The notes under the pieces: generated by a model
Database searches by the model: none
Seen by the model: the letters and a program-made list of their open reading frames with translations, nothing else
What the model was told of the DNA's origin: nothing
Virus record (IMG/VR): IMGVR_UViG_3300021399_000103
Location: 112,420-176,419 of that record
Source of the DNA: a virus
Lineage: Duplodnaviria > Caudoviricetes
Direction: 5' to 3' (one strand)
DNA: 64,000 nucleotides
Translations under genes and position numbers: made by a program
Shown: positions 6,983 to 62,207 of the stretch, piece after piece
How positions within the stretch are numbered: the stretch's first letter is position 1
Layout of the letters: every line of letters starts with the position of its first letter

Positions 6983-7248
6983 TATAAATTTCCTCCAAAC
7001 CCTTTAACAAAACATCCTATAATTTCTAAAAATTCATCAATATCATCTAAGTAAGCATTATTTTGATTATAGTCAGATGTTTTTAGAAAATCATAATATG
7101 AAATTATATTGACATGATATCCATAAGCATGTGCTTTTACTAACATTGCTTCTGGATTTTTACATACTAATGTTGCGTTTTCGTCCTGGCAAAGAGCCAT
7201 TAGTTGTTTTGTTTTACCTGAACCAGGTTCTCCAATAATCTTTTTCAT
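6982..7248 (-). CDS. Small P-loop protein
   Basis: GEPGSGKT and YLDD. Confidence 0.55.
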   Translation of the reverse strand: MKKIIGEPGSGKTKQLMALCQDENATLVCKNPEAMLVKAHAYGYHVNIISYYDFLKTSDYNQNNAYLDDIDEFLEIIGCFVKGFGGNL

Positions 7249-8216
7249 TAATTCTTATTCCCCTGTGTACTATTATAACCCCAATCAGTGCTTTGATAAA
7301 AATCAATTCAATACTTCTCACGTTCATTAAGTTGAGATCTCTCGCATTTTTCAATAATTTCATACATAAATGATTCTGGCCCAATAGACTTCATTTCTGT
7401 ATAAAATCTATTATTTGAAGAAGAAATACCAAGACCTGCTTTAATATGATCGCGTAATCTATTTCGTAAATCAACACTTTGACCTATATAACACTGATTG
7501 GTTTTTAAGTTTGTAATTTTATATATTCCACAATGATTTTGTCCAGTAGGAGTTAATCTACCTAATAAATCCATTGTTGGTTTTTTATAATAAAGTTCCC
7601 ATATTATTTTATTGATAGGTTCTGGATCTTTATTTAATTTTGTAGCGACTTCTTTTAATAATTGTATATCTTCTATATCTTGATCTGAAATTTTTAATTT
7701 ATAATAATCTTTTTCAGATTCTTTAAGCATATTTCTTTTATCTAAATCAATTGCGGCTCTTACTTTTTCTTTTAATGTTTTTAATTCTTCATTTACAGTA
7801 TTTAATTCTGCTTGTTTTGCAGCAATACTTTCTGTAAAAAGCTTGGCATTTTCTTCCATTATAGAAAGATATTCTTGTTTATGCTTTTCTTCTGCTAATT
7901 GATATCTATATCCAGCTATCTCCGCAGACTGAGACATTCGTTCTTGCATTAAATCATATGATTTTTTATAGATTTCGTCTGCGGCCGCAGATGCCTGGGC
8001 GCTTATAGTTTCGATGTCTGCGTTAAGAGACGCCTTTCTTCGTTCTAATGCGCTAGTTTCTGTCTCAGCAGAAGCGATTTCCGCAGTTAATTTAGTTAAA
8101 TTATTCTGTAATTCTTTATTCTTTTGGAGCACTTCTTCGTCTAATTTATGCTTTGGATATAAATATATTATTATACCAATCAATGCTCCAATAATTATCG
8201 CATAAATTCAAATCAT
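7248..8216 (-). CDS. Membrane-anchored coiled-coil GIY-YIG nuclease-domain protein; 2 in-frame TGA read as Trp
   Basis: AAGGAG then ATG 8216; TGA at codon 3 (8208-8210, MI*IYAIII) and at 7308-7310 in EREKY*IDFYQSTDWGYN; TAA 7248-7250 overlaps next ATG. Confidence 0.8.
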
Positions 8217-8288
8217 TATTTTCTCCTTAAAAAAGAAGGGGTAGATTAGTAATTACCTACCCCAGTATTTTTACAAAATTAACTCAGA

Positions 8289-8552
8289 TTACTCAGCGTC
8301 AGCATCTGGGTCAAAGTCTAAGCCTTCCTTAGTAAGACTTAGAAGCTTGATTGCCTTATGAGAACCATCATCAAGTTCAATTTCTGCAGGTGTTCTAACA
8401 CCAAGTCCCTTACGCTGAATAGCAGAGGTAAAGATACCATCTACGCTTCTCTTTTCAAGTCCGAGTGCAGCAGCAACATCAGCAGCTGTCAAATCTTCAC
8501 CATTGTGTTCCTTGAGATACATTAATACTTTCTTTGAATTTTCTTTCATCAT
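8289..8552 (-). CDS. HTH DNA-binding protein
   Basis: LTAADVAAALGLEKRSVDG; RBS favours ATG 8552. Confidence 0.65.
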   Translation of the reverse strand: MMKENSKKVLMYLKEHNGEDLTAADVAAALGLEKRSVDGIFTSAIQRKGLGVRTPAEIELDDGSHKAIKLLSLTKEGLDFDPDADAE

Positions 8553-8618
8553 AATCTTTTTTCTCCTTATTTCTTTCTTTATGTAAAAATTATACCACAA
8601 ATGTTTTTATTAAGTCAA

Positions 8619-8813
8619 TTATTTTTTTAAAATTTTTTGAACCATATCATCTATATCCATCATATCTTCTAAACTTAAATTATATTTAGATGTTAGATTT
8701 ATGATTTCTTCTTCCGCAGATTCTATTGATTCTTTATTTCGACCATTTTGAATAATCCGCTCTGCTGCCGCTATTCTCCTAGCTATTTTCTTTTTTAATG
8801 ACTCACTTGCCAT
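8619..8813 (-). CDS. Hypothetical protein
   Basis: ORF with RBS and own promoter. Confidence 0.5.
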   Translation of the reverse strand: MASESLKKKIARRIAAAERIIQNGRNKESIESAEEEIINLTSKYNLSLEDMMDIDDMVQKILKK

Positions 8814-8861
8814 ATATTTGTTCCTTAATTTTTACAATTATATTATACATAAAATTTTTCT

Positions 8862-10817
8862 TTAAAGCAAGAATTTCTGAATAAATTCTTCCTCAGTAAT
8901 AATCGGCACGCCCAATCTTTTCGCAGTAAGATTTTTGGATGAGGTGCTTGTGTTATCGTTATTGATTAGATAACTTGTTTTTGCAGAAACAGCACTTGAA
9001 ACTCTACCACCCCTGGATTCAATTTCAGACTGAAGTGCCGCTCTGTTTTTATACTGTTTTAATGAACCAGTGATTACGACTACAATATCTTTTAAATTAT
9101 CTAAATTATCTTCTTTTGCGGACGCAGGCCACTTTTCTAATGCCGCACCAGCCAAAATAGCTTCACCATAATCAAAGTTTAGGATTGAGCCTACTCGTTC
9201 TGGGCCAAAACCATCAATAGCATAAAAATCAAAGTCAGACCCCTCTTCAGTTGCATGTACAAAAGATGGAAAATCTTTGAAATGTTTAGCCAATTCTTTT
9301 GCCTGACTCAAACCAATTAATGGTATTCCAATGGCAGAAATATATCTTTCTAATGGAATATCTGAAGTTCTGATATTTTCAATCGCTTCAAGAATATTGT
9401 CTACAGATTTAATCCCAAAACCAGGTTTTGAAACCCACTCATCTCTATGATATTTTAACTCAAAAATATCGTGAAATTCTTTTACCCAATCCCAATCAAT
9501 TAATTTTTCAAGAGTTGCTTTAGAAAGACCTTTAATATCTAAGCCTTTCTTGCCGCAAAAATGATCTAAACGATTAATTAATTTACCAGAACAATTTGGA
9601 TTTTCACAAACTAAAGTAATAGAATCAGTTCCATGCTCGTATAATGGTTCTCCGCAAATAGGACAAACCCAAGGCTGGCTAATGTATGATTTTGTATACT
9701 CATCATCTTCTTCCGCTGATAAAATTTGCGGAATTATCATATTCGCCTTAAAAATTTTAATTTTTTGACCAACCCAGCTATTACCGTGTAAAACACTATG
9801 CATTATACTTAAATTATGTAGTGAAGCACGTTCAATTATAGATCCATCTAATTCAACAGGTTCAAATACCGCAACAGGAGTTAAAACTCCAGTTCTACCC
9901 ATAGTCCATTGAATATCTTGTAGTTTTGTTTCAACAGTTTCTACTTCTGGTTTCCAAGCAATTCCATTTCTAAAATGGTGGGATGTTTGTCCTAAAGAAT
10001 TTCCATATTCAGTATCATTAAATTTCCATACAACACCATCGCAAGGATATTCATCTTTAAAAGACATAATTATACTATTTGTTGATTTAATTTCATCAAC
10101 TGGTATATCAGTAATAAAATAAACTGTTTCAAACCCATAAGACTGAACTTCAATTAATTTTTCACTTAACAGCTTATAGTCACTACCAACAATAACATCC
10201 CAAGCAATAAAAGACAATTTTCTTTCTTCTACTAACTGAGTGTCAAGAACATTTAATGCTCCTGCTGCCGCATTTCTTGGATTTTTAAACTCATTATTTT
10301 TATTGATTTCTTCAAAATCAGAAACTTTAATTATAGCCTCTCCATCAATAATGAATTCATTTTTATATGGAATTTCTAATGGAACGTTTTGGAATTGCTT
10401 AATATGCTCAGTAATATCAGTGCCTTCAACTCCATTACCGCGGGTGTTTGCGGAAATCAATTTACCATTATTATATTTGATGCGGACTGATAAACCATCA
10501 AGCTTTATCATAGCAATCATTTCTTGACCATTCGCAAAATCCGCAACCTCCTCGTCGGAGTGGCACTTATCTAAACTAAGCATTGGTTTTGGCGTAATAG
10601 GAATTTTTTTAAGGAAGGGTAAAGTTGCAGTTCCTACTTGTTGCGTTGGACTATTGGATAAAATTATATTATTTTTATTCTCAAATGCGGAAAGCTCCTC
10701 TAATTTTAAATCATATTCTTGATCACTCATTATAGGACTATCAGAATTATAATACGCATCAGAAGCTTTGTTTAATTGATTTATTAAATCTGAGTATTCT
10801 TGAATATTACGCAACAT
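8862..10817 (-). CDS. ligA: NAD+-dependent DNA ligase
   Basis: KLDG adenylation motif, NPRNAAAG, Zn finger CPIC..C..C, HhH motifs, C-terminal BRCT. Confidence 0.96.
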   Translation of the reverse strand: MLRNIQEYSDLINQLNKASDAYYNSDSPIMSDQEYDLKLEELSAFENKNNIILSNSPTQQVGTATLPFLKKIPITPKPMLSLDKCHSDEEVADFANGQEMIAMIKLDGLSVRIKYNNGKLISANTRGNGVEGTDITEHIKQFQNVPLEIPYKNEFIIDGEAIIKVSDFEEINKNNEFKNPRNAAAGALNVLDTQLVEERKLSFIAWDVIVGSDYKLLSEKLIEVQSYGFETVYFITDIPVDEIKSTNSIIMSFKDEYPCDGVVWKFNDTEYGNSLGQTSHHFRNGIAWKPEVETVETKLQDIQWTMGRTGVLTPVAVFEPVELDGSIIERASLHNLSIMHSVLHGNSWVGQKIKIFKANMIIPQILSAEEDDEYTKSYISQPWVCPICGEPLYEHGTDSITLVCENPNCSGKLINRLDHFCGKKGLDIKGLSKATLEKLIDWDWVKEFHDIFELKYHRDEWVSKPGFGIKSVDNILEAIENIRTSDIPLERYISAIGIPLIGLSQAKELAKHFKDFPSFVHATEEGSDFDFYAIDGFGPERVGSILNFDYGEAILAGAALEKWPASAKEDNLDNLKDIVVVITGSLKQYKNRAALQSEIESRGGRVSSAVSAKTSYLINNDNTSTSSKNLTAKRLGVPIITEEEFIQKFLL

Positions 10818-10868
10818 TTTTTCTATTCCTTTCTTACAACCAATTATATTATATCATAATTATTTTAT

Positions 10869-12011
10869 TTAATCAAATCATTCTATTTTTGAACCATTAA
10901 TTTGTGTTGATTTTCTTTTTTTCGCTTGATGAACAGCTTGTCTTGAAACCCCTAAATATCTACCAGCTTCTGAAAAAGAATCAAACGGTATTTCATCTAT
11001 AATACAGATAAATGGTACTTCTATTTCTTCTAATGGTTCATCTGTATAATACAAAAAGTATTTACTTTTATAACGAGTTTTTTCTCTTAAAGCCTTTTGG
11101 ATTCCAGTGGTTTTGAATCCTTCTAATTGGATATCTTTTACTGTTTTATAAGTAGATTCCAATTCGCCGCCTGCGTTATATACAGCAATAAAACCTTTTG
11201 GATTTCCTATATACTCACCCCTTCGCTGAAGCGTTCTCAATGTAAATAACCGCTCATTTGGAGTGTAATAATACATAGGTGGTTTTTTATGTTCTATAGA
11301 ATAGTTATTAAATACGTCATCATTTTGTTTATAAATTTTTATTTTTGTACATATTGGATATTCATTATTTGGTTTTGGATATTCTAAAATATCAGAAGCA
11401 GGTGTTAAAGTTTTATCTAAACGTAATATATAAATAAATTGTTTAGTTCATGTTTTTCTAACATCTGAATATAAACTGCATATGCCTTCTGTAAATGGAA
11501 TTGATTCAGGGCAATTATGCTTATATAAATACCATAAAGTTGTTAAGTGACGTTCTTGCCCATCCAATAGCCAAAATCCTTCAGAAATAAAATATCCTAA
11601 ATATTCTCAATTTGTTGCTTGATAAATATATCCATAATTACCTTCTTTGCGGCCGGAGTAAGAAACTAGTAACCGCACATTTGGGCGGTATTTTTTTATT
11701 CATTTAATACCAAGAGAAATAGCTTGTGATTCTGAATTTTTCCCTTCTGAATCAGCCATACAAAATCTATTTAATTCAAGGTATTCTGATTTTTCTATTG
11801 GTTCTTTAACATATCTATCAAGTTTAATTTTTTCTTGAAAAGAACAACCTCATTGGAGTACTCCTACTAAAAGATTATCTTCTTTTCGGAATACTCCAAG
11901 ATTAAGAATTGCTTTTTTAAATCCTACCCCAGAATAATGTCAAGCAGATGTAAATTGATATGCTTTTGACGAGTTTATCTGGTCTATAAAATATCTTTTA
12001 TTTTCAATCAT
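10869..12011 (-). CDS. Mom-family (GNAT-like) DNA adenine modification enzyme with C-terminal NUMOD1/HTH-like domain; 6 in-frame TGA read as Trp
   Basis: ATG 12011 is in frame with ORF 10878-11276; motifs A*HYS, LELNRF, ESQAIS, LLVSYS, GYIYQATN*EYLG; TGA at 11940, 11850, 11700, 11607, 11448, 10878. Confidence 0.8.
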
Positions 12012-12013
12012 AA

Positions 12014-14335
12014 TTATACCTTTGATACTGATTGTATCTTATCTTTTAATGTGATATTACCTGCGGCGGTGCGTCCTAAAAGCGGAATATCTTTCGCTGA
12101 AATACAGATTGATTTAGAACTACCAACTACCAATACCTGGTCTTCATCGCTTAATAAAGCGGCTGCCGCAACTTCATCATTAGATTTATAACAAATAATA
12201 CCTTTACCACCACGTTTCTGTAAGACAAGATCATTTGGTGAAATTTTCTTACTGAAACCTGATGTTGAAAATATGCCAAGTGTATCATTACTATCTCTAA
12301 CGACCAATGTAGCAATTACTTCATCATCATCATTGAGATTTATACCTTTTACGCCAGAAGTAGTTCTTGAAGTTGCTGAAATCTCTGTTGAATTGAACTT
12401 AATACACATACCTTTCTTAGTAATAAGAATTATTGGTTCATCTTTAATTAAAGATACGCTGGCTAAGTTATCACCTTCTCTTAATGTGATTGCGGCGATA
12501 CCTGTTTTCTTTTTTGTCTTTGTGTATTCTTCTAATGAAGTTTTCTTTACTAACCCATTTTTTGTTGTAAACAAGACATATTTTGCGTCAGTATCTCTAT
12601 AAATTGAATAGATTACTGTTGGATTTTCGTTTGGTTGCATTTGAATTAGATTTTTAACAGAAATGCCTTTTGTTGTATTTGTTCCCCCAGGAATTGAATC
12701 TACAATTAAACGATACATGTTACCTTTATCTGAAAATACCATAAGAGAATCAACTGTATTTGTACGAATCACCGCATTTACAATATCATCAGTTGTTTTA
12801 ACTCCCTTGCCACCTCTGCGTTGTGTGCGGAATGAAGTTGCTGGAACTCGTTTAATCAAACCAGAATCAGTCATAATAACAACAACCTTCTCTGGTTCAA
12901 CAAATTGAATTTCTTTATCCTCTTTTTTAATTTCAATTTGTGTTAATTCAGTTCTACGAGCATCTCCATATTTTTTAACAAGTGAAGCTAATACAATTTT
13001 AACTGTTTTATATTGTGCTTCTGTATTATTTAACCAATTTGTAATTTCTTCAATATTTGAAATTAACTGTTTTTCTTCATCCTGTATTTCAACTTTTTCC
13101 AAGTTGGCTAAGCTACTTAATCTCATTGCGAGAATTGCTTTTGCTTGTTCCTCTGAAAAGTTATATTTTTTGATTAACTCTTCTTTAGCACTTGCCGCAG
13201 AAGCTGATTTTCTAATTAATGCAACAATATTGTCAATATCTTCAAGAGCTTTTAATAAACCTTCAACAATATGTAGTCTTGCTTTAGCTTTATTTAAATC
13301 AAATTCTTTTTCTCTTTTCAAACAATTTAAAGCATTGTTTACATAAATTTCACAGCAATCTTTAAGATTTAACTCTGTTGGAGTTTTACCTACAAGCGCA
13401 ACTTGATTATATGAGAAACTTGATTGAAGGTTTGTTTTAGCGAATAGCTGATTGGCTATATAATCAGAATTTCTATCACACTCAACTACAATTCTAACAC
13501 CTTTTTTATTAGTTTCATCTCTTACATCAGTAATTCCTTCGATTTCTTCAGCAACTTCACCAATTTCCGCAATTAAAGATTCTACGTTTGTTCCATAAGG
13601 AATTTCATAAAATATAAGATTATTTTTTTCTTTCTTATACTTCGCCCTAATTTTAACTGAACCATGACCTGTTTTCATAATGGCTGGAATATCGTTTTTA
13701 TTGATGATAATTCCACCTGTTGGAAAGTCCGGGCCAGGTAATGTTGGCTCTTTACCATCAATATAATCGTTAATTGCTTGCGCAACTTCAATTAAATTAT
13801 GCGGCGCCCAAGAGCAAGCTAAAGCTACACCAATTCCACTATTTGGATTACAAAGAAGATTTGGAAAATAAGATGGAAGAACTACTGGTTCTTTATCTAA
13901 TTCATCATATGTAGGGACAAAATCAACATTATTCTTCTTTAATCCTTGTAACAATCCATCTTCTGAAATTTTTGCAAGTCTTGCTTCTGTATAACGTGCG
14001 GCCGCAGGGCCATCTCCGACGATATTACCATTACTTCCATGCCAGTCAATAAGAGGATAACGCATAATCCAATCCTGAGAAAGTCGAGCCATTGCGCCAT
14101 AAATTGAACTGTCACCATGCGGGTGTAATTTACCCATTACATCGCCTACAATACGAGCAGCTTTAACGTGCGGCTTTGAATACGTGCGCCCCTCCATAAG
14201 ACAAGAATATAAAATACGTTTTGCTACTGGTTTTAACCCATCTACGGCACTGGGGATGGCACGATCGGAATTAACGGCATACGCATATTCAATAAAATTA
14301 GTATGTAATTCATTATAAATATCGTTATTTTGCAT
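12014..14335 (-). CDS. gyrA: DNA gyrase subunit A
   Basis: DGLKPV, HPHGDSS, AAARYTEARL, GyrA-box QRRGGKG, pinwheel repeats. Confidence 0.93.
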   Translation of the reverse strand: MQNNDIYNELHTNFIEYAYAVNSDRAIPSAVDGLKPVAKRILYSCLMEGRTYSKPHVKAARIVGDVMGKLHPHGDSSIYGAMARLSQDWIMRYPLIDWHGSNGNIVGDGPAAARYTEARLAKISEDGLLQGLKKNNVDFVPTYDELDKEPVVLPSYFPNLLCNPNSGIGVALACSWAPHNLIEVAQAINDYIDGKEPTLPGPDFPTGGIIINKNDIPAIMKTGHGSVKIRAKYKKEKNNLIFYEIPYGTNVESLIAEIGEVAEEIEGITDVRDETNKKGVRIVVECDRNSDYIANQLFAKTNLQSSFSYNQVALVGKTPTELNLKDCCEIYVNNALNCLKREKEFDLNKAKARLHIVEGLLKALEDIDNIVALIRKSASAASAKEELIKKYNFSEEQAKAILAMRLSSLANLEKVEIQDEEKQLISNIEEITNWLNNTEAQYKTVKIVLASLVKKYGDARRTELTQIEIKKEDKEIQFVEPEKVVVIMTDSGLIKRVPATSFRTQRRGGKGVKTTDDIVNAVIRTNTVDSLMVFSDKGNMYRLIVDSIPGGTNTTKGISVKNLIQMQPNENPTVIYSIYRDTDAKYVLFTTKNGLVKKTSLEEYTKTKKKTGIAAITLREGDNLASVSLIKDEPIILITKKGMCIKFNSTEISATSRTTSGVKGINLNDDDEVIATLVVRDSNDTLGIFSTSGFSKKISPNDLVLQKRGGKGIICYKSNDEVAAAALLSDEDQVLVVGSSKSICISAKDIPLLGRTAAGNITLKDKIQSVSKV

Positions 14336-14573
14336 TAATTAACTCCTCTCCATTAATTATTAATAATTTAATTTGATTAGAATAAAATTCTAAATAGGTA
14401 TTGGGTTTATGATATTTTTCTAATAGTGAGATTCCTTTTTGAATATTGTTAATTCCAATATTGATATTACAAAAATCACAATGAATATGCCAAGGCGTTC
14501 TACCCCATTCGTCTAAACAAATATAACATTCATTTCCACAATTTGGACAGACTATTATTTTTTTATTTTGCAT
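14325..14573 (-). CDS. Small Zn-ribbon hypothetical protein
   Basis: CPNC...CDFC; overlap-coupled to gyrA. Confidence 0.5.
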   Translation of the reverse strand: MQNKKIIVCPNCGNECYICLDEWGRTPWHIHCDFCNINIGINNIQKGISLLEKYHKPNTYLEFYSNQIKLLIINGEELINAK

Positions 14574-14793
14574 TAACTACCTCTAGTTTATCCCAGGTTG
14601 TGACATAAACTCTATTGTTCCATAATACTCTAACATAATATCCATAAAAATTGTAAAATTCATTTACATATTCTACAATTTCATGAGCGGGAATATTTGG
14701 ATATTTTAATGCTGCTTGAGTCATAAAATCTTCGTCATATATTTCTCTCAATGTTCTTAATTTTACATTATTCATGCCATACTTCCTCATCAT
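14563..14793 (-). CDS. Hypothetical protein
   Basis: Overlap-coupled ORF between gyrB and gyrA. Confidence 0.5.
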   Translation of the reverse strand: MMRKYGMNNVKLRTLREIYDEDFMTQAALKYPNIPAHEIVEYVNEFYNFYGYYVRVLWNNRVYVTTWDKLEVVNAK

Positions 14794-15067
14794 TATATAT
14801 TGAATCTTTAAATCTATAATTTTTCCAATGATATAATTTCATTAAAGCTATATATCTGCCAAATATATTTCTATTTGAATAATAATTTTTTAAATTATCC
14901 CAACAGAATTTTATATAAGGATAATCACCCAGTTTTAATAATGGAATAAAAGTATCTGGATTATTTTCATCAATTACCTGTTTTACAATTTTCTTTGGTA
15001 AATAAAAATCTCCATCTCTATCTTTGTACCAAGTTTCATTATTCGGCGTTATATAATCCCGCTTCAT
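14768..15067 (-). CDS. Hypothetical protein
   Basis: Overlap-coupled ORF after gyrB. Confidence 0.45.
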   Translation of the reverse strand: MKRDYITPNNETWYKDRDGDFYLPKKIVKQVIDENNPDTFIPLLKLGDYPYIKFCWDNLKNYYSNRNIFGRYIALMKLYHWKNYRFKDSIYNDEEVWHE

Positions 15068-16958
15068 TGCTATGCTCCTTAATATATTCTTTTCTTAAAC
15101 TTGCACTTTGGCCCATTAAAGTTTCAAATAGCTGATCTGTGGCTGTAATATCTTCAATAGTGATTTGCTTAATAATTCTATTATTAGGGTCAGTTAAAGT
15201 TTCTTCCGTCTCTTCGACCGACATTTCACCAAGTCCTTTAAGTCTATTAACTAGATATTTTACACCCTTATTCTGGTTTCTAAATTCATCCAGAGCCGCA
15301 TCATCTTTTAAATATTTATAACCCTTATTTCCAGGTAAAGTAATTTTATAAAGCGGCGGCACTCCCGCATAGACATATCCATCCTCAATTAACTGTGGAC
15401 AGAAGTTCCAGATAAATGTGTAGAACAGGTTTTTGATATGCGCACCATCAACATCAGCATCAGATTCAATAATAATTTTGCCATATCTCAAATCTTCTGG
15501 ACGATATGTAATTTTCATTGTCTTAAGATCAATAGTCAATCCAAAAGCATCAATCATTGACATAATTTCTGCATTCTTTTGGATCTTATCTATTGTTGCT
15601 TTCTGAGTGTTAAGAATTTTACCTCTTACCGGCATAACAGCTTGGAATGAATTATCTCTTGCCATTTTTAAGTTAGCAGATGCAGAATCACCCTCTGTAA
15701 TATAAATTTCACAATCTTTTCTGGGTTTGCCTTTACAATCTGCTAATTTCTTATCAAACTTTAAGGCTTTTTCTTTCTTCTTTGTTTGTGCACGAGCATT
15801 ATCACGAGCTTTTTTCGCAGCTTCTCTTGCCTTGCGGGCATTGATAGCCTTATCCGCAATTAACTTAACTTCTTTTTCATTGGCGTTCATCCATGCTTCA
15901 AGATTATCAATAATTGCTCTTGTAAAAGGCGTCATATCAATTTTAGTAATTCTTGATTTTACTTGAGCGTCATATGCTACTCCTGGCGCGGTAATGTTGA
16001 AGACGATGTATAAACCTTCTTGGATATCTTCACCAGTGAGGTTTTCATCCTTTTCTTTTAACCATTTTTTCTCCTTGAAGAATTTATTAAATTCTCTTGT
16101 TAAAATAGTTTTAACTTGTGTAATATGTTGACCAGATTCGGTAAGACCAGTATTAACATATGGAACAATAATAGACCCATATGCTGATGTATAAGTCATA
16201 ACCATATCCATTTTATTCTTACCATTGGCAAAATTCATGTTAAATCTATTATCAATTAATTCTTTATTTTTTACTGCGGTATCTACTAAATCGTTAATAC
16301 CATTTTTAGAAAAGTATGTAGATTTATTACCATTATCATCAAGATTAATTGTTAAACCTGGACAAAGTGCCGTAATAGTCTTACAAAGATCTTTTACTTT
16401 AGAGATTTCAACTTCTGTATGGGTAAAAAACTCTTCAGATGGTTGCCATTGCACAGTTGTTCCATTTTTAAGATTAAAATTATTTGGTTTAAATTTTTCT
16501 CTTTTTTCAAAAACTCCCTCTTTAAACCAAATATTTTCTCCATCTCCATCTCTTACAGTTCCAACATTTAACCAATGGGATAAAAAAGTAGTGATTTTAC
16601 TACCAATTCCAAAAGATCCTAATGAGGTTCCTTCATAAGTGCCATCTTCACGATATTTTCCAGAAGTGTTTAATACACTGAAAGCAGCTTCAAGAATTGT
16701 TTTTCCATCATCTCTAAATGAATTAGGAATAAAACCTTGTCCATTATCAGTTACCGTTACAATATCTTTATTAATATTAATATCAATCTGATTACCATGA
16801 CCAAGTCTAAATTCATCAATAGAGTTAGATAAAATTTCGACCAAAAGCTGAGTTGAATATGTAGTATCGCCAGCATATACTCCTGGTCTTAGTCTTGTAA
16901 ACTCTAATGGTGAAAGTGATTCAATAGATTGTTCATTATATAAAGTTTTATCTACCAT
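15039..16958 (-). CDS. gyrB: DNA gyrase/type IIA topoisomerase subunit B
   Basis: RPGVY, EILSNSIDE, DNGQG, EGDSA, PVRGKILN, DADVDGAHI, KGLGEM. Confidence 0.94.
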   Translation of the reverse strand: MVDKTLYNEQSIESLSPLEFTRLRPGVYAGDTTYSTQLLVEILSNSIDEFRLGHGNQIDININKDIVTVTDNGQGFIPNSFRDDGKTILEAAFSVLNTSGKYREDGTYEGTSLGSFGIGSKITTFLSHWLNVGTVRDGDGENIWFKEGVFEKREKFKPNNFNLKNGTTVQWQPSEEFFTHTEVEISKVKDLCKTITALCPGLTINLDDNGNKSTYFSKNGINDLVDTAVKNKELIDNRFNMNFANGKNKMDMVMTYTSAYGSIIVPYVNTGLTESGQHITQVKTILTREFNKFFKEKKWLKEKDENLTGEDIQEGLYIVFNITAPGVAYDAQVKSRITKIDMTPFTRAIIDNLEAWMNANEKEVKLIADKAINARKAREAAKKARDNARAQTKKKEKALKFDKKLADCKGKPRKDCEIYITEGDSASANLKMARDNSFQAVMPVRGKILNTQKATIDKIQKNAEIMSMIDAFGLTIDLKTMKITYRPEDLRYGKIIIESDADVDGAHIKNLFYTFIWNFCPQLIEDGYVYAGVPPLYKITLPGNKGYKYLKDDAALDEFRNQNKGVKYLVNRLKGLGEMSVEETEETLTDPNNRIIKQITIEDITATDQLFETLMGQSASLRKEYIKEHSNEAGLYNAE

Positions 16959-18158: not shown

Positions 18159-18755
18159 TTATGACAAAAATTTTTCTATTTGTCAATTTTTTAGAACTTC
18201 TTTTCCAGTTTTTGATTTTGGATGATGAATTCCAAAAATAATAGCTCTTATTAAAAGTATGCTAAATCCATGTTTTTCTAATCAATAATTAGAATCTGGA
18301 AAATTAGATATTTCTGAATAATCAAATATAACTGTTTCATCTCAATTAAAATCTTTACATAAATCATCACATAAAGCTGCTAATTCAGCAAGGCAGTCTG
18401 CTAAATAATCTCTATCATTTAATTTATCTTCGCAAATACAAACATGGATATAGTTATCATTTCAAGTTTTTATATTCAATGGAAAAGTTTGTACAGTTAT
18501 TACATTATTATTTTTATCTTTACCTATTCAATAGTGGAAATTATATAATGTATGAATATGATTTCAATCATTATGTTTATGATTCTCGCCTAATTGAGCA
18601 ATAATATCAATATAGTTTTTATTATCTTTACTTGGCTGTACATATTGTCGTAAATAGGGATTATTTCGACCAGAAGAATGAATCACAATGCCCACTGGTT
18701 TTAATTCCCTATGATAAGCTCATTGAGTGCTGTTCGTCATCATGCAGTTTAGCAT
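18159..18755 (-). CDS. N-acetylmuramoyl-L-alanine amidase (Amidase_2)-like protein; all 7 Trp encoded by TGA; absent from ORF track
   Basis: MLNCMMTNSTQ*...GIVIHSSGRNNPYLRQYVQP...ND*NH...HY*IGK...VQTFP..KT*...ICED...NY*LEKHG; no TAA/TAG for 198 codons. Confidence 0.78.
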
Positions 18756-22278: not shown

Positions 22279-23322
22279 TTAATAATCCATAATTTGTTCT
22301 TTCAGCTGATTGGCACGAAGTGGATTTCTTAATTTCTGCATTGCCTTTGCTTCAATTTGACGGGCACGTTCTCTTGTAACACCAAGAACTTTGCCAATCT
22401 CATCTAAAGTATGTCCAGTTCCATCTTCAAGCCCAAATCGCATTTGAACAACAAGTTTTTCTCTATCAGAAAGAGTTCCGAGTATATCATTAATAGCCTG
22501 TTTTGTGGCATCTCGTCTGACTTTTTCTTCTGGAGTTTCCTGATTTAAGTCTGGAACAATATCTGTCATATCAACATCATCATCTTCCGCAACTGGTTTA
22601 TCAATAGACAGGGGGTTTTTAGATGCGGCAAGGTACATTGCTACTTTCTCAGCGGTTAAACCAGTAGCAGCTCCAATTTCTTCTTCTGTTGGTTCATGTC
22701 CAAGAGTCTGAAGTAATTCGGCTCTTGCTTTAGAAATTTTAGACAATGATTCTACGACATGAACTGGAGTACGAATTGTTCTGCCCTGGTCAGCAATGGC
22801 TCTACTAATCGCCTGGCGCACCCAATATGTAGCATATGTAGAAAACTTAAATCCTTTTGTGTAATCATATTTATCAGCAGCTTTGTATAAACCAAGGTTA
22901 CCTTCTTGAACAAGGTCTAAAAAGCTCAGATTACATTTGCCAACATATTTTCTTGCGATAGAAGCTACTAAGCGAAGATTTGATTCAACTAATTTATTTT
23001 TTGCTTCAGTATCCCCATCGACTACTCGTTTCGCAAGATATAATTCTTGTTCTGGACTAAGTAACGGAATAGTGTGAATTTGACGCATATAAATTTTAGC
23101 TGAATTGCTTACTGAATTAAATTTTAAATCATCATTACTTTCTTCATCAAAATCTGGCAACACAACTTGAATATTAGCTTCATAAAGAGCGTCATATGCT
23201 TTTTCTAATTCTTCATCATCAGAGAAGATTTTTTCAATTTCAGCTTCATCAATTGTGTTATCTTTTGCTTTAGCAATTAATGCTTGAATCTTTTGTTCGA
23301 ATGTCATATTCAACACCTCCAT
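22279..23322 (-). CDS. Phage-encoded primary-type sigma70 factor (SigA/RpoD-like)
   Basis: [51 protein letters not shown]. Confidence 0.93.
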
Positions 23323-31564: not shown

Positions 31565-31644
31565 CACCCAGGCAAGGAGTCGAACCCTTTGACGATAGAT
31601 TTGGAGTCTATTGGAGGCCCGGCCTCCTTTAAGTCTACCCAGAT
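31565..31644 (-). tRNA. tRNA-Trp(CCA) with atypical D region
   Basis: ATAGA-CTCCAAA-TCTAT; T-loop TTCGACT; D region is a long linker plus GGAGGC-CGG-GCCTCC. Confidence 0.8.
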
Positions 31645-39683: not shown

Positions 39684-39947
39684 CTATTGTGGAGTATCAC
39701 TAGGAATTGTGTCGCCTGGCTCTTCATTGCTATTATTGCCAGATTCTGAACTTGAACCACCTTCAGCATTTTTTACAGCAATTCATTTGCCTTCTCCATT
39801 TAAGATATAATTAGCATCTTCTTCTATGATAAAACAAGTGCTTCCCATTCGAGTTGTACGAAGATCAATTTTAGAAAGTTCGTCTGATTTATCACAAACA
39901 TAGCGTTTAATTCCTATCTGCTGTTCATTCTTTACAACTGCAATCAT
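39684..39947 (-). CDS. Small protein; 1 in-frame TGA read as Trp; absent from ORF track
   Basis: AAGGAG RBS; MGSTCFIIEEDANYILNGEGK*IAV; TGA 39783-39785; TAG at 39684. Confidence 0.6.
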
Positions 39948-41212: not shown

Positions 41213-41285
41213 TTCCGGGTGCGGGAGTTGAACCCGCCTTTTCGGGATATGAGCCCGACCTGGGACCGATCCAGTGTAACCCGGG
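41213..41285 (-). tRNA. Initiator tRNA-fMet(CAU)
   Basis: C1xA72 mismatch; GGG/CCC anticodon stem. Confidence 0.85.
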
Positions 41286-41673: not shown

Positions 41674-41759
41674 ATAAGATAATTAAGCCTTTGTCCTCTT
41701 GGCTACCCGGCCCTTTCGGGCCAGGGTGGGATTCGAACCCACGATATTAACTATCTTAT
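41674..41759 (-). ncRNA. Circularly permuted tRNA mimic with GAAA-capped acceptor stem (YrlA-like), without CAGCAA
   Basis: ATAAGATAGTTAA..GTGGG-TTCGAAT-CCCAC CCTGGCCC-GAAA-GGGCCGGG TA GCC-AAGAGGACAAA-GGC TTAATTATCTTAT. Confidence 0.82.
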
Positions 41760-55182: not shown

Positions 55183-58100
55183 GTGATATATAAGATGAGA
55201 CCAACAGAGAAACAATTAGCGTCAGCTTTAAGAAAATATAATGAGATTATGGAATATCGGTGTTATGAATTCTTGACTATTGGAAAAGAATATTCTGAAG
55301 ATACTGATGGTTGGAATCTGCGGGATATGGTTGCGGAATGTAATTATCAGCTAAGCACTTATTATGAAGAGGGTCACGTTAACTGTGAAATGAAACAAGA
55401 AGATAGAAAACAGTGGTTAGCTGAGACTGGTAGATTAAAAAGATTTATCGCACATTGGGAACCATATATTGATGAAATGGTTTGCGTTTGCGGACATTGC
55501 AGTAAATACGATAACTAGGAGGTGTGTGTGTATATGAGTTATGTATTTTATGCTAAGGTAAAAGGGTGTCACAGCGATGGTGAGAATTATTTTGATGAAT
55601 TATTTACTATTGCGGATAGCTATACTGCAGCCGCAAGGGATATTGAAAATAGATTTAACACTGACTTGTTAGGATTCAGTTTATATTGTTTTGATTCAGA
55701 TGTGATTCATATTCAGGATATTAATGAATATGTAAAGGAAGCGAGAGCGATAGTAGGTTAATATGACGGTTAAAGATAAACAGCATTATTTTCCCGAAGG
55801 ATTTTTTTCAAAGGAAAGACCAATAGCTAAAGGAGAAGATGAGAAATTGATCGCAAAGACAATTATTCCAAATCGGTTGGTATATATTTATAATCCAGAT
55901 CCGATTAAGTTCTTCTTTTGGCTCAAGCCAGAAGGATTGCTGATAACGAATTTTCGCTTTAAGGTTCATTATAGTAATAACAAAAGTCTGACTAAGTTAC
56001 ACATATTGATTAGATCGCCTTTGCTTTGTATAGATCGTGATGATACAGGAATAACGATTGGTAATAAACATCAGTTGTTTTTTATGAAAAATAGAAAGGG
56101 AGGAAAATAAGTGAATATTATTATAAAGTATGACACTGACGATATTCTAAATTTAATAAAAAAAGATGTTACTGAAACTTTTAATGATCGTCCAAATTAT
56201 AAGTTGTTTATAGACGAGGTTGAATTTGATCGTTGGCTTAACACTGACCAAGGACTAAAGATTGAAGCACATGCTGATATTAGTTTTGAGAAAATAATAG
56301 AGGAAATTAAAGATGAAATTGATTAATGCCAATGCTCTTGAAAAGGCAATTTATGAATGGATGCCAAAAGATCAAGAAACATGGATGAATAGTGATATAC
56401 CTCCGATTGAGAACTTAGTTACATCTATCATGATGACAATTCAAGAACAGTCACCAATTGAAGCTATTCCGGTTGAGTGGATTAAGGAATGGATTAAGAA
56501 ACATCATGAATACGCAAGTAGAGTTACTATTACATGGTTGCTTGATGATTGGGGAGAAGAACGGGAGGATAAGGAATGACAGTAGAACAGATTTTGACCG
56601 AGATATACAAGAGTGGTTGTGCTGACGATGTGTTTCTTGTATTGGCAAAGCGTGTAATTAGTGAAAAGGAAAAATTGAATAAGCAGATTGCAGAGAGTAA
56701 CGCAACTTTAAGATTGATAGGTAAAATTACGAATGATAAGACGGTGAAGGAGATACTTGAAGAATGAGAGCGATAAATGCGGATGCTTTTGAGAAACATT
56801 TAGAAGAAGCGTGGATGCTTCACAAAATTAGTAATGACGATTTGACACAGATCAGAAAATGGCTCGCAGAAGAAAAGACAGTGGATGCACCGTCTGGCAG
56901 ATGGATATGTTATCCAGAAAGCTTGAAGTACAAAAGTAGTATCGAATGCAGTGTTTGCGGTGAAGCTTTTAATATATTAAGTAATGAAACAAAGCGGTTT
57001 AATTATTGTCCGCATTGTGGGGCAAAAATGGATGGTGAGAAGTGGATGAAATAAAGATTGAAATGATTGAAAAGTACATTTCAGAAATTGAAGATAAAGT
57101 CCCTGATGTAGCTGCAGCAGTAAAAGGGTTTATTGAAATATGGAAAAAGGAACAGGAGAAATGGAATGAACGATAAGGAAAAGACATATTTACAGGGTTT
57201 GATAGATGCTTGGGAGATGGCAAGAACAATTGCGCTGCCGCCTACAAGAGGTGGAATGGGATACAATGATTTGGTGGAGTGCTTTAATATGGCACGACAT
57301 GATGTTTTTTGTTTACCTGTGTCTGAAGTAAAAGAAAAATATGATAATTGGAAAGCAAATATTAAGTAATTGTTTTGGCACTCTTTTAATTGTATTAATA
57401 TGTTTAGTTATTATGTTATTAATTATTATTATAGCAGATACAATATATGAAATTGTAAGGGATTGGTTTAACTAGGAGAAATAATATGACCGTTAGAGAA
57501 TTGATTATAAGACTCGTAAGAGAGACGGATTTAGATAGTAATATAACCGTGTTTGACATGGATGAGAATAAATTTAAAGATCTGGCTATTGAAAAATTGG
57601 GAACGATAGTATATTTTTATATCAAAAACCGCAAGAAATCTGATATGGAAATTCGAGAAGATTTTTTCAGAAACGCTTAGAAAAAGCGTTTTTTAATTAG
57701 AGTATCCTAAATTTTACGAAAATAAAAAGTTAAAGAGTAACGAAAAAGACGTTGACACGAAACAGTTATTTATGGTATAATATAATATATACGAGCTAGA
57801 AGCCCCGAAGGGGATTCGCGGCGAGTAAGCCCAGAAGCCGCAGGCGCACTGGGCGTTAGGAGGAAAAGAATGGCATTAAGAGATGATATTAGAGATTTAA
57901 CCGCCACAGAGGTTCAAAGATTTAGAGAAGAAATGTTAACGCAGGAAGATTTAGAAAAAATTATGGATGATGTGACTGCGTTTTGTATTCTTGAAATTAG
58001 AAAGTTTTGCGGGGAGGATATCTTTGAGAGAAAAGTGCAAGAACTTAAAGATAAGGGTATAGATAAAGCGAGAGAAAAAATTAAAGTTAATTTAACTAAA

Positions 58101-58512: not shown

Positions 58513-59259
58513 ATGGAATTAGAATTGAATAAACCTTATACAAGCGAGGAAATCGCAAGAAATGAATTTAATGTATCGGCTAAAACATTTTCAAATAAAA
58601 GAGATATTTATTTAGAAAAATTGTCTTCAAAGTATAAATGAGAATATAAGAAAAGGAAGTATATTTTACTAGAAAAATTAAATGATAACAATTTACAACG
58701 AGCTTCTAAGATAGAAATTCAACAAGAAATTAGGCAGCCGGTTCATGATGTTGTAAGTAAAAATACTTTACAAACATATAGTAGCATTGCCAGAATAATG
58801 GTAAATAATAATGTTTCATATGTTAAAAAGCATCCGCAACAAGAAAATACAATGGTAAGATATATTCGTGCGGTAATGGAAACTGATTATGCGGTAAAAG
58901 AATGAGTATGGGGGGATATAAATCAATTACCAATTCAACCTTTAACGCAGGATCAAAAAGAATATTTAACGGTTTTAATGGCGAAAAAAGATGGATTGAG
59001 TTTAGATCAGTTAAGTTTTATGATTAAAGCTATGGAAGAATCTGGTTATATAACTAAAGAAGAGGCGAAGGATTTATTATATGATACCGCAACAAAAGAT
59101 TATGAAGATGTAATGAGAGGATTCAAACAGAAATATCATTTTAGACCAAGATTAGTTGCGGATTGGCAAGAAGGCATTGCGTTTGATGCGGATATTGTTA
59201 TTCCTTATGGATTGAAAAATAAGGAGAAATTGTTGGAATATAAATATGACAAAAATTAA
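58513..59259 (+). CDS. Hypothetical, possibly DNA-binding, protein; 2 in-frame TGA read as Trp
   Basis: AAGGAG then ATG 58513, in frame with ORF 58978-59259; TGA at 58639 and 58903; no other stop. Confidence 0.65.
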
Positions 59260-59763
59260 GGGGGGTCGATTTAGCAAAAACATGACAAAACTTTATAAAG
59301 ATAAAGAAGAACAAATGTGGGATTCGCTTGAGGATTTTGCGAAATCATTTTCAGAAGATGAATTGAAAAAATTAAAAGAAGAAAATCCTAATTTATATGA
59401 GATGATAATGAGTTTAATTTGGGAATAATTCATTACAAAAATAAGGATGGTTTTTCTTAAAAATTCATTACAAAATTTTAAGTTTTAGGGTTTTGCTGGA
59501 GTGGGGTGCCGATCGGACCTCCTCTATATGCTCCTTCATTTCAAAAACGATTTTCAATCGAAACCGGGGGTATTCCCTATCAAAAACCGGATTGAAAAAT
59601 CCGGGGGTACCCAAAGCGCAACTACCTAAGGAACGAAATGAAAACTCATTTGAAAATCGCGTTAGGAGATTACCAAAATTCGAATCAAAAAATGAGTTGA
59701 CTTGCCAAAATAAAAAAATTATATTATAATAATAATAGAAAGAAAGTTAGAGGTTCAACTTTT

Positions 59764-60156
59764 ATGAGCAAAAGTAAAGATATGCTACAAGAAGCAATAA
59801 AGGCATTATATGAAGAAGGTAAAAGACGTAGCGAAATTCGTTCTTTATTTGATACAGTATTAGAAGAGAATGATCAGATCTATGTGATCCGAGATATAAT
59901 CGTACAGGCAATTTTTGATTATGTGGATAAAGTTCATCCAGATATGCGTAATACATATACTAAAGAAGATCTAGAGAAGTTTACAACAGACCAGATTTTT
60001 GGTACTATTAATAAGGATCTGGATGAACTGCGGACTTTGAAAGCCGATGGGTATACGAAGGTCTCTAGTAGTGAAACTTGTCGTGGTACTAACTCTAGGC
60101 CTGGATTAGAAGGATATGACGACGAAGCTTTAAAGGCGTTTTTGCGGACTTTGTAA
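59764..60156 (+). CDS. Hypothetical protein
   Basis: TTGACT..TATAAT promoter and GAGG. Confidence 0.6.
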   Translation: MSKSKDMLQEAIKALYEEGKRRSEIRSLFDTVLEENDQIYVIRDIIVQAIFDYVDKVHPDMRNTYTKEDLEKFTTDQIFGTINKDLDELRTLKADGYTKVSSSETCRGTNSRPGLEGYDDEALKAFLRTL

Positions 60157-61437
60157 GAAATTACTGCCAAGATTTTTTACAAGGGATAATTTAGAGTACG
60201 TTTTGTAGCTTTCGAATTAACTACAAATTATGATATTGGCGTCACGTTTTATTTACCTCCCTTTCTATATACATATATTTAGTTAACCCAGCGACGCCCT
60301 GGGTTTTTCAGGTTATATAAAATTAGAGATATAGTAATAAAGGTCGGCTATACGCCGACCGGTTTTTATCTTCCCCCTAAATAATTATACTATATTTTTT
60401 TATATAATACAATATTGTGAAAATTTTCACAAAGTCGCTCCCCAGGCTTGAACCAAGAGTAAATAGTAAGTATAGAGATGCGGCCAGCCCGGTTAAGGGA
60501 TCGGTTTAGCGACCTGGCGCAATGACTACTATTACTTTCTACTACTGGAACAACAAAAAATCGGCCGCTTAAGCGCGAATTATGTGCGCACGACCGATCT
60601 TTCGGAAAAGTTAAAATGGAATGGAGTAAGCAGCTTTCACTGCTTACAATTATTATTATACCAAAAATTTTTTCTAAAAGTAAGAAAAATTTTTATTTTG
60701 GAACTTTTTTTTCATAAAAAGTTACTTTTTAGTGCGATTATATGCGGTTTTTATTAAAAACGTTTGATATTTTAATTATATTATATTATATTTTTTAATT
60801 TTTCGCAAATTTTTTAATAAAAATAGTAATTTTTTTAAGATTTTTGGCGATTTTTTAACTTTTTTTATTGGTTTTTTTTAAAATTATACCAAATTTTTTT
60901 AATTTTTGCCAATAAAATAGATCTATTTTTGGAAAAAAAGTTTCATCATATGATCTTTTTAGCGCGATTGATCCGATCGGCGTTTTAATTTGTGAAAATT
61001 TTCACAACCCGAACGGCGCCGCCGCCGATTTTTGTGATTTTTCGCGCGCCATATGGAGCCTGCACTTCCGAGAAAAAAATTGCCATATGGTGTGCCGATC
61101 GGAACTCCGATCGTCATCGGGGTTAGTTAGCCTAAACTAACTATAGCACTGTGACGCTTTAACGCGTTAAAGCGGTAAAGTAGTTGGAAATGCAACTATT
61201 TTGGGAATGTGAAAATTTGATGAAAATTTTAAAAATTTACTTGACTTTTTTTCGATTGTGTGGTATAATGGAATTTCGGGCCTAGGCAGTCGCCGACGGC
61301 CCGAGTTAGTCAAGCCTAACTTTCTGAAACTTTTGTGTCAATTTTGAGTTTAGTGTGGCTAAACTTTTGCTCCAAGTTTAGTGCTACTAAACAACCGGCG
61401 CAGTTAGCATAGACTAACTATCGCCGTAAAAAAAGAG

Positions 61438-61809
61438 CTAGTTTTTGCTAGCTCTGTGTGCCGTCAATGTGACTGTATAGCTTACGCCGTCAATGGTGAA
61501 GTCTACAGCTCTTTCCGCATTCGTTACAGCCACGTTTTCGTAGCGTTTGAGCGCATCCGCAAGCACTGTGATGATTTCCTGTTTTACAGGGTTTTCCTTG
61601 CGTGTGCGTGTTGTTTTCCCGCTTGTCTTGCGTGTTGTAGCGTTTGCGAGCTTGCGAGCGTTTTTCATTTGCTCTTTTGTGAGATCCCAATCATGCGGAA
61701 TCCCGCGATCAGTTTCAGCATCATCCTTGATCAGCTGAATTGCTTCTTCACGCGAACACTTTAACGTGCGCATGTGGTGCTGAATAAGCTTTTCATCCAT
61801 TTTTATCAC
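61438..61809 (-). CDS. Basic hypothetical protein
   Basis: GAGGTG RBS. Confidence 0.6.
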   Translation of the reverse strand: MIKMDEKLIQHHMRTLKCSREEAIQLIKDDAETDRGIPHDWDLTKEQMKNARKLANATTRKTSGKTTRTRKENPVKQEIITVLADALKRYENVAVTNAERAVDFTIDGVSYTVTLTAHRASKN

Positions 61810-61856
61810 CTCTTTCTATTGGATTGTAAGGGAAGAAAAGGGCTTGCGCCCTTTTC

Positions 61857-62207
61857 TCACGCTTTTGTGAAATAGGCTCTTCCCTTTTCCTCTGTGCGGA
61901 CTACACGACCATCCAAACGCAAGCCACGAACGAGAGCAGAAACCTTATTTCCGCTAAACTCAGCGAGCGCAGGAATCATCTTGTGAATCTCTGTTACAGT
62001 ATAACGAGTACCATCAGCCATAGCGTCATAGATGACGTTCATCAACTCAGCGTTAGCGAGCTGATTTTTTGTAGGCTTGTCACTCTTGCGCTCATTCTTA
62101 CGAGCGAGCAATTCAAGTTCGTGGTCAATAAATGCCACGAGTTCAGCATCATCAGTTACGCGAGCGCGCAGAGCGTTGAAGTAGTCACGTTTTGTCATTT
62201 TAGTCAT
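61857..62207 (-). CDS. wHTH family paralog 4 (ends in a TGA stop)
   Basis: MTKRDYF, KPTKNQ, SGNKVSAL, EEKGRAYFTKA. Confidence 0.7.
   Translation of the reverse strand: MTKMTKRDYFNALRARVTDDAELVAFIDHELELLARKNERKSDKPTKNQLANAELMNVIYDAMADGTRYTVTEIHKMIPALAEFSGNKVSALVRGLRLDGRVVRTEEKGRAYFTKA

Follow-up and report, generated by a model that had tools for sequence, protein, structure and literature searches.

The window analyzed here is a 64-kb stretch of DNA that forms the end of a 176-kb phage record, which is rated 94% complete and has a GC content of 33%. Within it lie five genes that a preliminary description had proposed to be intact only under genetic code 4. All five are indeed open when TGA is read as Trp, and their TGA counts are those originally given (Table 1).

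Table 1. Genes and features in the window and, for the suppressor tRNA gene, in the complete record (G000)
Feature	Position	Strand	Characteristics
GIY-YIG homing endonuclease gene	2514..3152	-	5 TGG, 0 TGA; TIGR01453 above cut-off
GIY-YIG gene	7248..8216	-	2 TGA, 2 TGG; hydrophobic N terminus, probable coiled coil, C-terminal GIY-YIG nuclease domain; PF01541 above cut-off
ligA, gyrA, and gyrB, around the Mom-family gene	8862..16958	-	TGA-free by codon counts; TGG 10 (ligA), 4 (gyrA), 6 (gyrB)
Mom-family DNA-modification gene	10869..12011	-	6 TGA, 2 TGG; PF25680, 135.9 bits (cut-off 27.1)
Amidase_2-like gene	18159..18755	-	7 TGA, all 7 Trp codons; PF01510 above cut-off
tRNA-Trp(CCA)-like gene, atypical, function doubtful	31565..31644	-	anticodon and T arms good, D region abnormal, acceptor with several G-U pairs
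87-residue gene, no known family, tRNA region	39684..39947	-	1 TGA (codon 55); Pfam and PHROG searches without match
Two small genes ending in TGA, ATGA overlaps	56313..56776	+	TGA stops at 56579 and 56767
248-residue gene, unnamed family	58513..59259	+	2 TGA (codons 43 and 131); profile-search homologs mostly 220-266 residues
Conserved 116-residue gene, putative early region	61857..62207	-	true TGA stop; homologs end at the same residue on TGA or TAA
tRNA-Trp(UCA), split gene	G000:96747-97015	+	about 15.4 kb before the window; 196-nt group I intron after U34

The Mom-family gene encodes a protein of 380 residues and starts 2 nt past the gyrA stop codon, so that it is probably co-transcribed with the TGA-free gyrA. 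Five of its six TGA sites are Trp in 97-120 of 120 homologs; the sixth, site 24, is Tyr in 114 of the 120. Where the sites were read in the DNA of three homologs the codon was TGG, with one homolog having Lys at position 188. Each of the seven TGA sites of the amidase is Trp in 8-11 of 11 homologs, and a homolog lacking any TGA has TGG at four of them. Trp-303 of the GIY-YIG gene corresponds to TGG in a relative (L112) whose own copy holds 11 TAG codons, and Trp-3 lies at a position that cannot be aligned with homologs. Most TGA sites of these three genes are thus Trp or TGG in homologs, which bears out the suggestion that several TGAs occupy family Trp positions. For the 87-residue gene a single relative was found, 71% identical over residues 1-86 with the frame conserved; it shares the TGA and therefore gives no independent support for Trp there. 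A scan of viral contigs gave no relatives of the 248-residue gene, and a profile search gave 52 homologs. Site 43 is aromatic in 37 of 40 of these (Trp in 7), site 131 is a variable column (Trp in 1 of 40), and the nearest full-length homolog itself requires TGA to be read as Trp. The alternative that the five genes are pseudogenes with nonsense mutations, raised in the preliminary description, could appeal to Mom codon 24 and codon 131 of the 248-residue gene, which are not Trp in most homologs, but it is contradicted by the homolog alignments and hardly conceivable, given that every break is TGA with no TAA, TAG, or frameshift, that most TGAs fall on conserved Trp, that the 98% identical Mom of a relative carries seven TGAs, and that the terminase, portal, and lysin genes are likewise open only with TGA as Trp.

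Apart from the five genes, the remaining 71 minus-strand genes of the window contain 218 TGG codons and no TGA, as expected from the earlier statement that replication-type genes lack internal TGA. Over the minus arm of the whole record 86 genes encode Trp with 275 TGG codons and no TGA, and all 25 TGAs are confined to 7 genes, compared with an expectation of 20.4 genes (0 of 20,000 permutations). The late arm, which lies outside the window, has 239 TGA and 122 TGG codons, and some recoded genes hold 12-24 TGAs each. Recoding is concentrated in structural and lysis genes, and replication genes are compatible with the standard code. Stop codon recoding of late and lysis genes had been put forward as known from gut phages, and the pattern does match that published in the accessible part of Borges et al. 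(bioRxiv 10.1101/2021.08.26.457843). Seven late genes have Trp but no TGA, as against 2.0 expected (p = 0.0005). The late genes carry sigmaA-like matches; visual inspection, rather than a formal motif search, showed no distinct late-promoter motif. These data support the presence of two codes in one genome, with TGA read as Trp in selected genes.

TGA also serves as a stop codon in this phage. Among 120 homologs of the conserved 116-residue gene, 106 terminate three residues past the final aromatic-F motif, including two that use TAA as the stop, and reading through the TGA would append 18 residues and run into a hairpin. The two small genes with ATGA overlaps have an in-frame TAG or TAA one codon (56579) or two codons (56767) past the TGA, so both fit either code, are weak evidence, and were not taken to prove termination at TGA. 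The claim that early genes stop on TGA thus holds at 61857, and the two overlaps are uninformative. A host that constitutively uses code 4, with the phage merely sharing it, is very unlikely. Walled gut bacteria reading TGA as Trp do exist (Eggerthellaceae, according to the accessible part of PMC13462651), and two of the three TGA stops originally cited are those with backup stops 1-2 codons on. Nevertheless, constitutive code 4 predicts TGA as Trp in every gene class, whereas TGA accounts for none of the Trp codons in the 86 minus-arm genes of this AT-rich genome. Moreover, the 116-residue gene ends on a true TGA stop, sister phages use TAG as Gln or neither code, and the phage supplies a suppressor gene of its own. 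The lysins, of the GH25, CHAP, and CW_7 types, point to a Gram-positive wall. A host search with the lysin returned a single weak genome match, to Eubacterium multiforme (31% identical).

The phage-encoded TGA suppressor is recognized only once an intron has been removed in silico. The intron splits the anticodon of the tRNA-Trp(UCA) gene and thereby hides it from detection; the gene escapes both ARAGORN in its default setting and the tRNA model of Rfam. The tRNA spliced in silico has an A1-U72 pair, G73, and the anticodon UCA. The suppressor unit is itself TGA-free and has a host-type promoter match upstream. Thirty related loci, comprising 17 exon/length types, all splice in silico to Trp(UCA) at the same junctions, the search pattern having demanded a Trp-like 3' exon. 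No other, intron-less UCA tRNA was found in the record. The joined tRNA exons are absent from the Logan contigs, which, as assembled contigs only, are uninformative either way. In two RNA studies, contigs start at about G000:96150, a short distance past the promoter match, and a contig of a related strain ceases to match at the terminal G of the intron; each is a weak hint.

In the Rfam alignment the intron has a U at -1 (U34) in the P1 U-G pair and a terminal G. The core helices P3, P4, and P7 are present together with P9. P4 and P7 are invariant and so on their own say nothing about covariation; compensatory changes occur in P2, P3, and P9, with 95.7% of cells paired. The covariation score was 0.51, compared with 0.17 for shuffled and at most 0.13 for slid controls. 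Against Rfam RF00028 the intron scored 22.7 bits, which is under the 50-bit gathering score and exceeds the 18-20-bit threshold given for tRNA introns in the accessible part of Williams 2020. The anticodon-loop introns described there share the insertion between positions 34 and 35, the U at -1, the terminal G, and a length of about 200 nt; the present intron differs in sitting in a phage opal suppressor. That study screened bacterial and archaeal genome assemblies and distinguished 21 types, among which an entry for Trp or a suppressor is possible. A phage tRNA-Leu(UAA) in one related locus (L004) bears a similar intron. A literature search covering mostly open-access papers turned up no phage suppressor tRNA described as split by an intron.

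The tRNA-Trp(CCA)-like gene of the window is classed by ARAGORN as a possible pseudogene, scores 22.1 bits with Rfam (below the cut-off), and has a 5-bp anticodon stem. Exact-pattern relatives were found neither in viral contigs nor in the fetched loci, and the gene folds no better than shuffled sequences. Decoding of UGA by a near-cognate tRNA-Trp(CCA), either encoded by this gene or supplied by the host with an anticodon stem of 4 bp, is improbable. Such tRNAs do read UGA in E. coli (PMC13092985), and the D region of the phage CCA gene is altered. However, a fully cognate UCA gene exists and is conserved beside the recoded genes, the phage CCA gene combines its 5-bp stem with a sub-cut-off score and no relative in the viral scan, and leaky decoding would hardly be adequate for genes with 12-24 TGAs. 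The record, at 94% completeness, has no match to PF00472, PF03462, or PF00579 for RF1, RF2, and TrpRS.

Splicing of the suppressor might itself act as a timer or sensor. The pre-tRNA would be made as soon as infection begins, and its self-splicing, being slow or conditional, would determine when UGA changes from stop to Trp. This change would release the late arm together with Mom, the nuclease, and the amidase. In keeping with such a role, the anticodon is formed only by splicing, with U34 supplying the U of the U-G splice pair in P1, a host-type promoter serves the suppressor unit, and a structurally intact intron is retained in many relatives. We nevertheless consider a timer unlikely. Intron-less suppressor orthologs occupy the same locus in relatives that have the same dual code (3-4 TGAs in RuvC, 0 of 17 in DnaE), and some intron copies carry an ORF of 149-161 codons, one of which matches the PD-(D/E)XK endonuclease family, and resemble mobile introns.

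Relatives that read TAG as Gln place recoded stops in the same embedded genes, Mom and the GIY-YIG gene, and have clean gyrase genes. Mom is recoded in 3 of 3 TGA loci and 8 of 9 TAG loci, and the GIY-YIG gene in all three loci of either kind, many of the loci being near-duplicates and the Mom tree containing few independent groups with unresolved deep forks. By comparison, among 44 Trp codons of gyrA, gyrB, and ligase there is no TGA, and among 190 Gln codons of gyrA and gyrB there is no TAG. The proposal that recoded genes are interspersed in code-11-compatible replication operons is therefore sustained. Membership of individual genes inside TGA-free operons in the recoded class is supported, and the TAG lineages strengthen it. 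In relatives L116 and L117, TGA also occurs inside homologs of dnaB, primase, and RNase H, so the boundary of recoding is not sharp family-wide.

A more specific proposal was that active selection has placed TGA codons as locks in toxic genes (Mom, the nuclease, and the amidase), which would be kept silent until the code is switched at a set time. We regard this as possible but on the unlikely side. The probable co-transcription of Mom with a TGA-free gene, the late and cytotoxic nature of Mu Mom (PMC3378877), the recoding of the same genes under two different codes, and the exclusive use of TGA for Trp in the amidase all speak for locks. However, in recoded genes TGA makes up 0.69 of Trp codons in the late arm and 0.77 in eight island genes, where the A-ending share of Lys, Glu, and Gln codons is 0.82 and 0.85, respectively; the island genes lie within this bias (27 of 35 versus 0.85, p = 0.23) and the late arm significantly below it. 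TGA is the first Trp codon of 26 genes out of 34, where 22 would be expected. The homing endonuclease gene, which lies in the same operon, has no TGA, Mom near gyrase is free of recoded stops in relatives L112, L118, and L125-L129, and the bulk of TGAs is in tail genes, which have no known toxicity. Gating of toxic genes by a code switch was thus not borne out.

We favor, with a probability of roughly 0.78, a reading in which a large phage infects a standard-code host and, in the course of infection, alters how UGA is read through its own tRNA-Trp(UCA). Its observed basis is the codon pattern, the Trp identity of the recoded sites, the split tRNA gene, the intron structure, and the convergence with TAG lineages. 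The host would be a standard-code walled gut bacterium, probably of the Clostridia. The tRNA would be transcribed in its TGA-free unit off the host-type promoter, excision of the group I intron would form the anticodon, and the host TrpRS would presumably charge the product, the record lacking a TrpRS. Charged tRNA-Trp(UCA) would then compete with host RF2. Purifying selection would remove TGA from genes needed before the tRNA accumulates (replication, sigma factor, and RNA repair), and genes needed in very large amounts, namely the probable capsid-region genes, would likewise be kept TGA-free. In genes needed only later, AT bias would let Trp codons drift toward TGA. Such late-acting genes placed within replication operons would include Mom, the GIY-YIG gene, the amidase, and RuvC, and the TGAs in them may delay translation as a by-product, which for Mom is perhaps useful. 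Against suppressor-driven switching stand the host-type promoter of the suppressor unit, which would not by itself explain a delay of the switch, and the TGAs in replication-gene homologs of L116 and L117.

The dual code itself is already published. The accessible part of Borges et al. describes code-4 gut phages of the Agate, Jade, and Sapphire clades that resemble the present phage in using TGA as Trp mostly in structural and lysis genes with standard-code-compatible replication genes, and in their large genomes, probable Firmicutes hosts, and relatives with TAG as Gln or the standard code. A recoded intron endonuclease within an early gene is also reported there. Two Jade genomes have an RF1/TrpRS "code change module", whereas the present record has neither RF1 nor TrpRS. 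Alternatively coded crAss-like phages (Yutin et al. 2021, PMC7886860) also recode mainly late genes, show suppressors that track recoding imperfectly, and switch codes over short distances; they differ in having Bacteroidetes hosts and introns in protein genes rather than in a suppressor tRNA. For the tRNA-Trp(UCA) of phages AP1 and HF2, experiments have demonstrated Trp insertion at UGA (PMC12636597). Those phages have their own TrpRS, unlike the present one, and that paper nowhere uses the term "intron", whereas the tRNA here has one. Mom of phage Mu acts late, is cytotoxic, and is subject to translational control (PMC3378877, PMC13219725); it hypermodifies adenine using Gly-tRNA (PMC13219725). 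The present gene matches the same family, PF25680, far above the cut-off, but its product has an extra C-terminal part and it lies in a replication operon, where TGA read-through would replace Com-type control.

Two points go further: the intron-split suppressor, which differs from the suppressors in the accessible text of Borges et al., and the recoding of the same embedded genes in TGA and TAG lineages, a convergence in replication operons not described in that text. TGA suppressors were detected there in only 35% of code-4 genomes; non-canonical forms were guessed at, and tRNA introns go unmentioned in the part available. For the approximately 65% of TGA-recoded phage genomes with no detectable suppressor, an intron-split gene is a testable explanation in part of the cases. 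The tRNA-intron unit is short and can be assayed without the phage; if splicing did prove to be a timer, this would be a ribozyme-timed switch of the genetic code. Because lineages with different recoded stops hit the same replication-operon genes, recoded stops would mark late-acting embedded genes. The phage family offers a natural test of the question, open in this field, whether recoding serves regulation or reflects drift that is tolerated.

The full record, G000, is 176,419 nt long with a GC content of 33% and is rated linear and 94% complete. Its initial 126 nt recur 4 nt before the record end, and so G000 may be almost the entire genome. The window spans G000:112420–176419 and holds a minus-strand arm of replication and tRNA genes (28 ARAGORN calls, a tmRNA among them). 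A plus-strand late arm, G000:15.7–97.5 kb, lies beyond the window and carries portal, virion, and lysin genes and a probable terminase (weak match).

Features located in the window, with coding or RNA characteristics
Feature	Position	Strand	Remarks
Homing endonuclease gene	2514-3152
Gene with GIY-YIG domain	7248-8216	-	2 TGA; hydrophobic N terminus
Mom-family gene	10869-12011	-	6 TGA
Amidase_2-like gene	18159-18755	-	7 TGA
Phage sigma-70 gene	22279-23322
DUF2828/DUF7788 gene	25779-27317	-
Y-RNA-like (YrlA) matches	28785-28854, 41675-41758	-	Weak
tRNA-like gene, anticodon UCC	29064-29136	-	Rfam 46 bits; missed by ARAGORN
Xanthine/uracil permease gene	32782-34059	-
tmRNA	34857-35206	-	Tag of 25 residues
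Gene without named family	39684-39947	-	1 TGA
tRNA-Gly(UCC)	40031		Ordinary
GOLLD-like large RNA	40135-40567	-	83.9 bits, E 1.8e-20; gathering score 150 not reached
Initiator-like tRNA, anticodon CAU	41213-41285	-	Unpaired first pair; missed by default ARAGORN
Gene without named family	58513-59259	+	2 TGA

The five TGA-containing genes, previously proposed to be intact only under code 4 (TGA read as Trp), were open under that code with the TGA counts first reported. Because database proteins may themselves be code 4 calls, homolog DNA was read. The preliminary description placed several TGAs at family Trp positions, which was upheld for most Mom sites, all amidase sites, and W303 of the GIY-YIG gene (TGG in one relative). 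In Mom, Trp occupies five of the six sites in 97–120 of 120 homologs, and these five are TGG in the DNA of three relatives, except for Lys at 188 in one. At all seven amidase sites Trp predominates among homologs, and four are TGG in the DNA of one homolog lacking TGA. Mom site 24 is an exception (Tyr in 114 of 120 homologs). The 58513 gene falls in a family of 220–266-residue proteins, whose columns are aromatic at its first TGA site and variable at the second. The 39684 gene has a single relative, carrying the identical TGA.

The remaining 71 minus-strand window genes contain 0 TGA and 218 TGG codons. Non-recoded genes of the whole minus arm have 0 TGA and 275 TGG, and the late arm has 239 and 122, respectively. 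The 25 TGAs of the minus arm are confined to 7 genes versus 20 expected; this clustering by gene is far from chance. Further recoded islands beyond the window are RuvC, its neighbor, and one small gene.

Default ARAGORN listed no Trp tRNA, and neither a release factor nor TrpRS was matched in the record. An intron-aware search flagged G000:96747–97015 (+) (6747–7015 of L001, a locus from the same record), ∼15.4 kb before the window. A 196-nt insert with a group I core (G000:96781–96976; L001:6781–6976) starts after U34 and has a terminal G; it scores 22.7 bits against RF00028, under the gathering score. Its excision in silico gave a 73-nt tRNA-Trp(UCA) cloverleaf that has A1-U72 and G73 and whose anticodon loop reads CU-UCA-AC. 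Pattern scans returned 30 loci of 17 distinct types, all spliced in silico as tRNA-Trp(UCA) at the identical position, although the pattern demanded a Trp-like 3′ exon and the count is thus silent on other tRNAs. Across nine diverse copies 95.7% of cells were paired and compensatory changes occurred in P2, P3, P9, and the stems of the tRNA, exceeding both controls. The junction was confirmed by L045, L049, and L050, related loci in which an intron-less tRNA-Trp(UCA) with the identical unusual loop occupies the equivalent locus. The suppressor unit is TGA-free and comprises a small ORF, hsp20, the tRNA, a 135-aa ORF, and a terminator-like hairpin. A σA-type promoter match precedes it (G000:96098–96126; L001:6098–6126), at equal distance in six relative loci.

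Other copies vary. The spliced tRNAs of L021, L023, L025, L026, L027, L029, L074, L076, L094, and duplicates carry an additional hairpin where the variable arm would be, absent from the G000 copy; its loop copies the normal Trp CCA anticodon loop, and the stem sequences differ. Introns of 566–605 nt, expanded at the L1 loop, occur in L021, L023, L024, L025, and L076, and those examined contain a 149–161-codon ORF, matching the PD-(D/E)XK endonuclease PF11645 in L021 and having an in-frame TGA in L023. On L084 (Ga0214473_10006913), a metagenome contig of 50% GC, the identical intron end precedes a tRNA-Trp-like 3′ exon; this could be a cellular copy.

Early genes had been said to use TGA as a stop. 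This is correct for the 116-aa gene ending at 61857, which belongs to a large family whose members terminate at the same residue position (of the loci read, two stop on TAA and two on TGA). At 56576 and 56764, a backup TAG or TAA lies 1–2 codons downstream of the ATGA overlap, and both sites are compatible with either code. The true stop at 61857, the TGA avoidance, and the GH25, CHAP, and CW_7 lysins point to a walled, standard-code host, probably among the Clostridia. Three putative early-region genes have a TGA stop embedded in the TTGACA box belonging to the promoter match that follows (G000:7433, 8919, and 9741, minus strand). A TTGAAA-17-TATAAT promoter class recurs in window 17000–55000 (-) and is distinct from the TTGACA promoters of that putative early region.

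Several other RNAs were seen. The UCC tRNA-like gene has good D, anticodon, and T arms and three acceptor-stem mismatches. The substrate of Mu Mom is Gly-tRNA (PMC13219725), and a link between this gene and Mom is speculation. The YrlA matches and the DUF2828/DUF7788 gene lie near RNA ligase, kinase, and phosphoesterase genes.

Among 19 related replication-operon loci, TGA is recoded in some, TAG (Gln) in some, and neither in others. Mom has a recoded stop in 3/3 TGA and 8/9 TAG loci and the GIY-YIG gene in 3/3 of each. For gyrA, gyrB, and ligase the count is 0 TGA in 44 Trp codons; the two gyrase genes have 0 TAG versus 190 CAA/CAG. Recoded genes are interspersed in code 11-compatible operons, as proposed, and this holds for TAG as well as TGA. 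In the Mom tree TGA and TAG groups interleave; because several of the loci nearly duplicate one another and the deepest branching order is open, same-gene recoding under both codes represents only a few independent cases. The pattern places recodability with the gene, not the codon.

That TGA gates toxic genes, as suggested, is possible but less likely. The TGA share of Trp codons in recoded genes (0.69 in the late arm, 0.77 in eight islands) does not surpass the proportion of Lys, Glu, and Gln codons that end in A (0.82 and 0.85, respectively), and so positive selection for TGA is not needed; strong selection against it is needed in non-recoded genes. Moreover, the homing endonuclease gene has no TGA, seven relatives carry a Mom without any recoded stop, and TGA extends into dnaB, primase, and RNase H homologs in the related loci L116 and L117. 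The strongest candidate for a useful lock is Mom, since it starts 2 nt past gyrA and its Mu counterpart acts late and is cytotoxic (PMC3378877). TGA is absent from seven Trp-encoding late genes versus 2.0 expected. Several of the seven belong to the capsid region, consistent with UGA decoding being costly for presumably abundant proteins.

We consider the following mechanism as a whole probable (about 0.78). The host would treat UGA as a stop; the phage tRNA would be transcribed, presumably spliced and charged by host TrpRS, and compete with RF2. TGA would be shunned in genes required early or in bulk and accumulate in the remainder, for translation putatively late. That the intron itself times the code switch is possible but unlikely, as intron-less relatives keep the identical recoding pattern and some intron copies have an endonuclease-like ORF.

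The dual code is already known, being the phenomenon of Yutin et al. (PMC7886860) and of Borges et al. (10.1101/2021.08.26.457843), which includes a recoded gene within an early gene. The intron is of the type described in Williams 2020. A literature search covering few subscription papers found no report of an intron-split phage suppressor or of same-gene convergence of TGA and TAG codes.

The first gene of the late arm (G000:15710–16786; 710–1786 of L008, from the same record) follows a perfect σA-type promoter match and contains 3 TGA codons. Its product matches a PHROG labeled "sigma factor," without Pfam support. If this gene is a late regulator, it would be suppressor-dependent.
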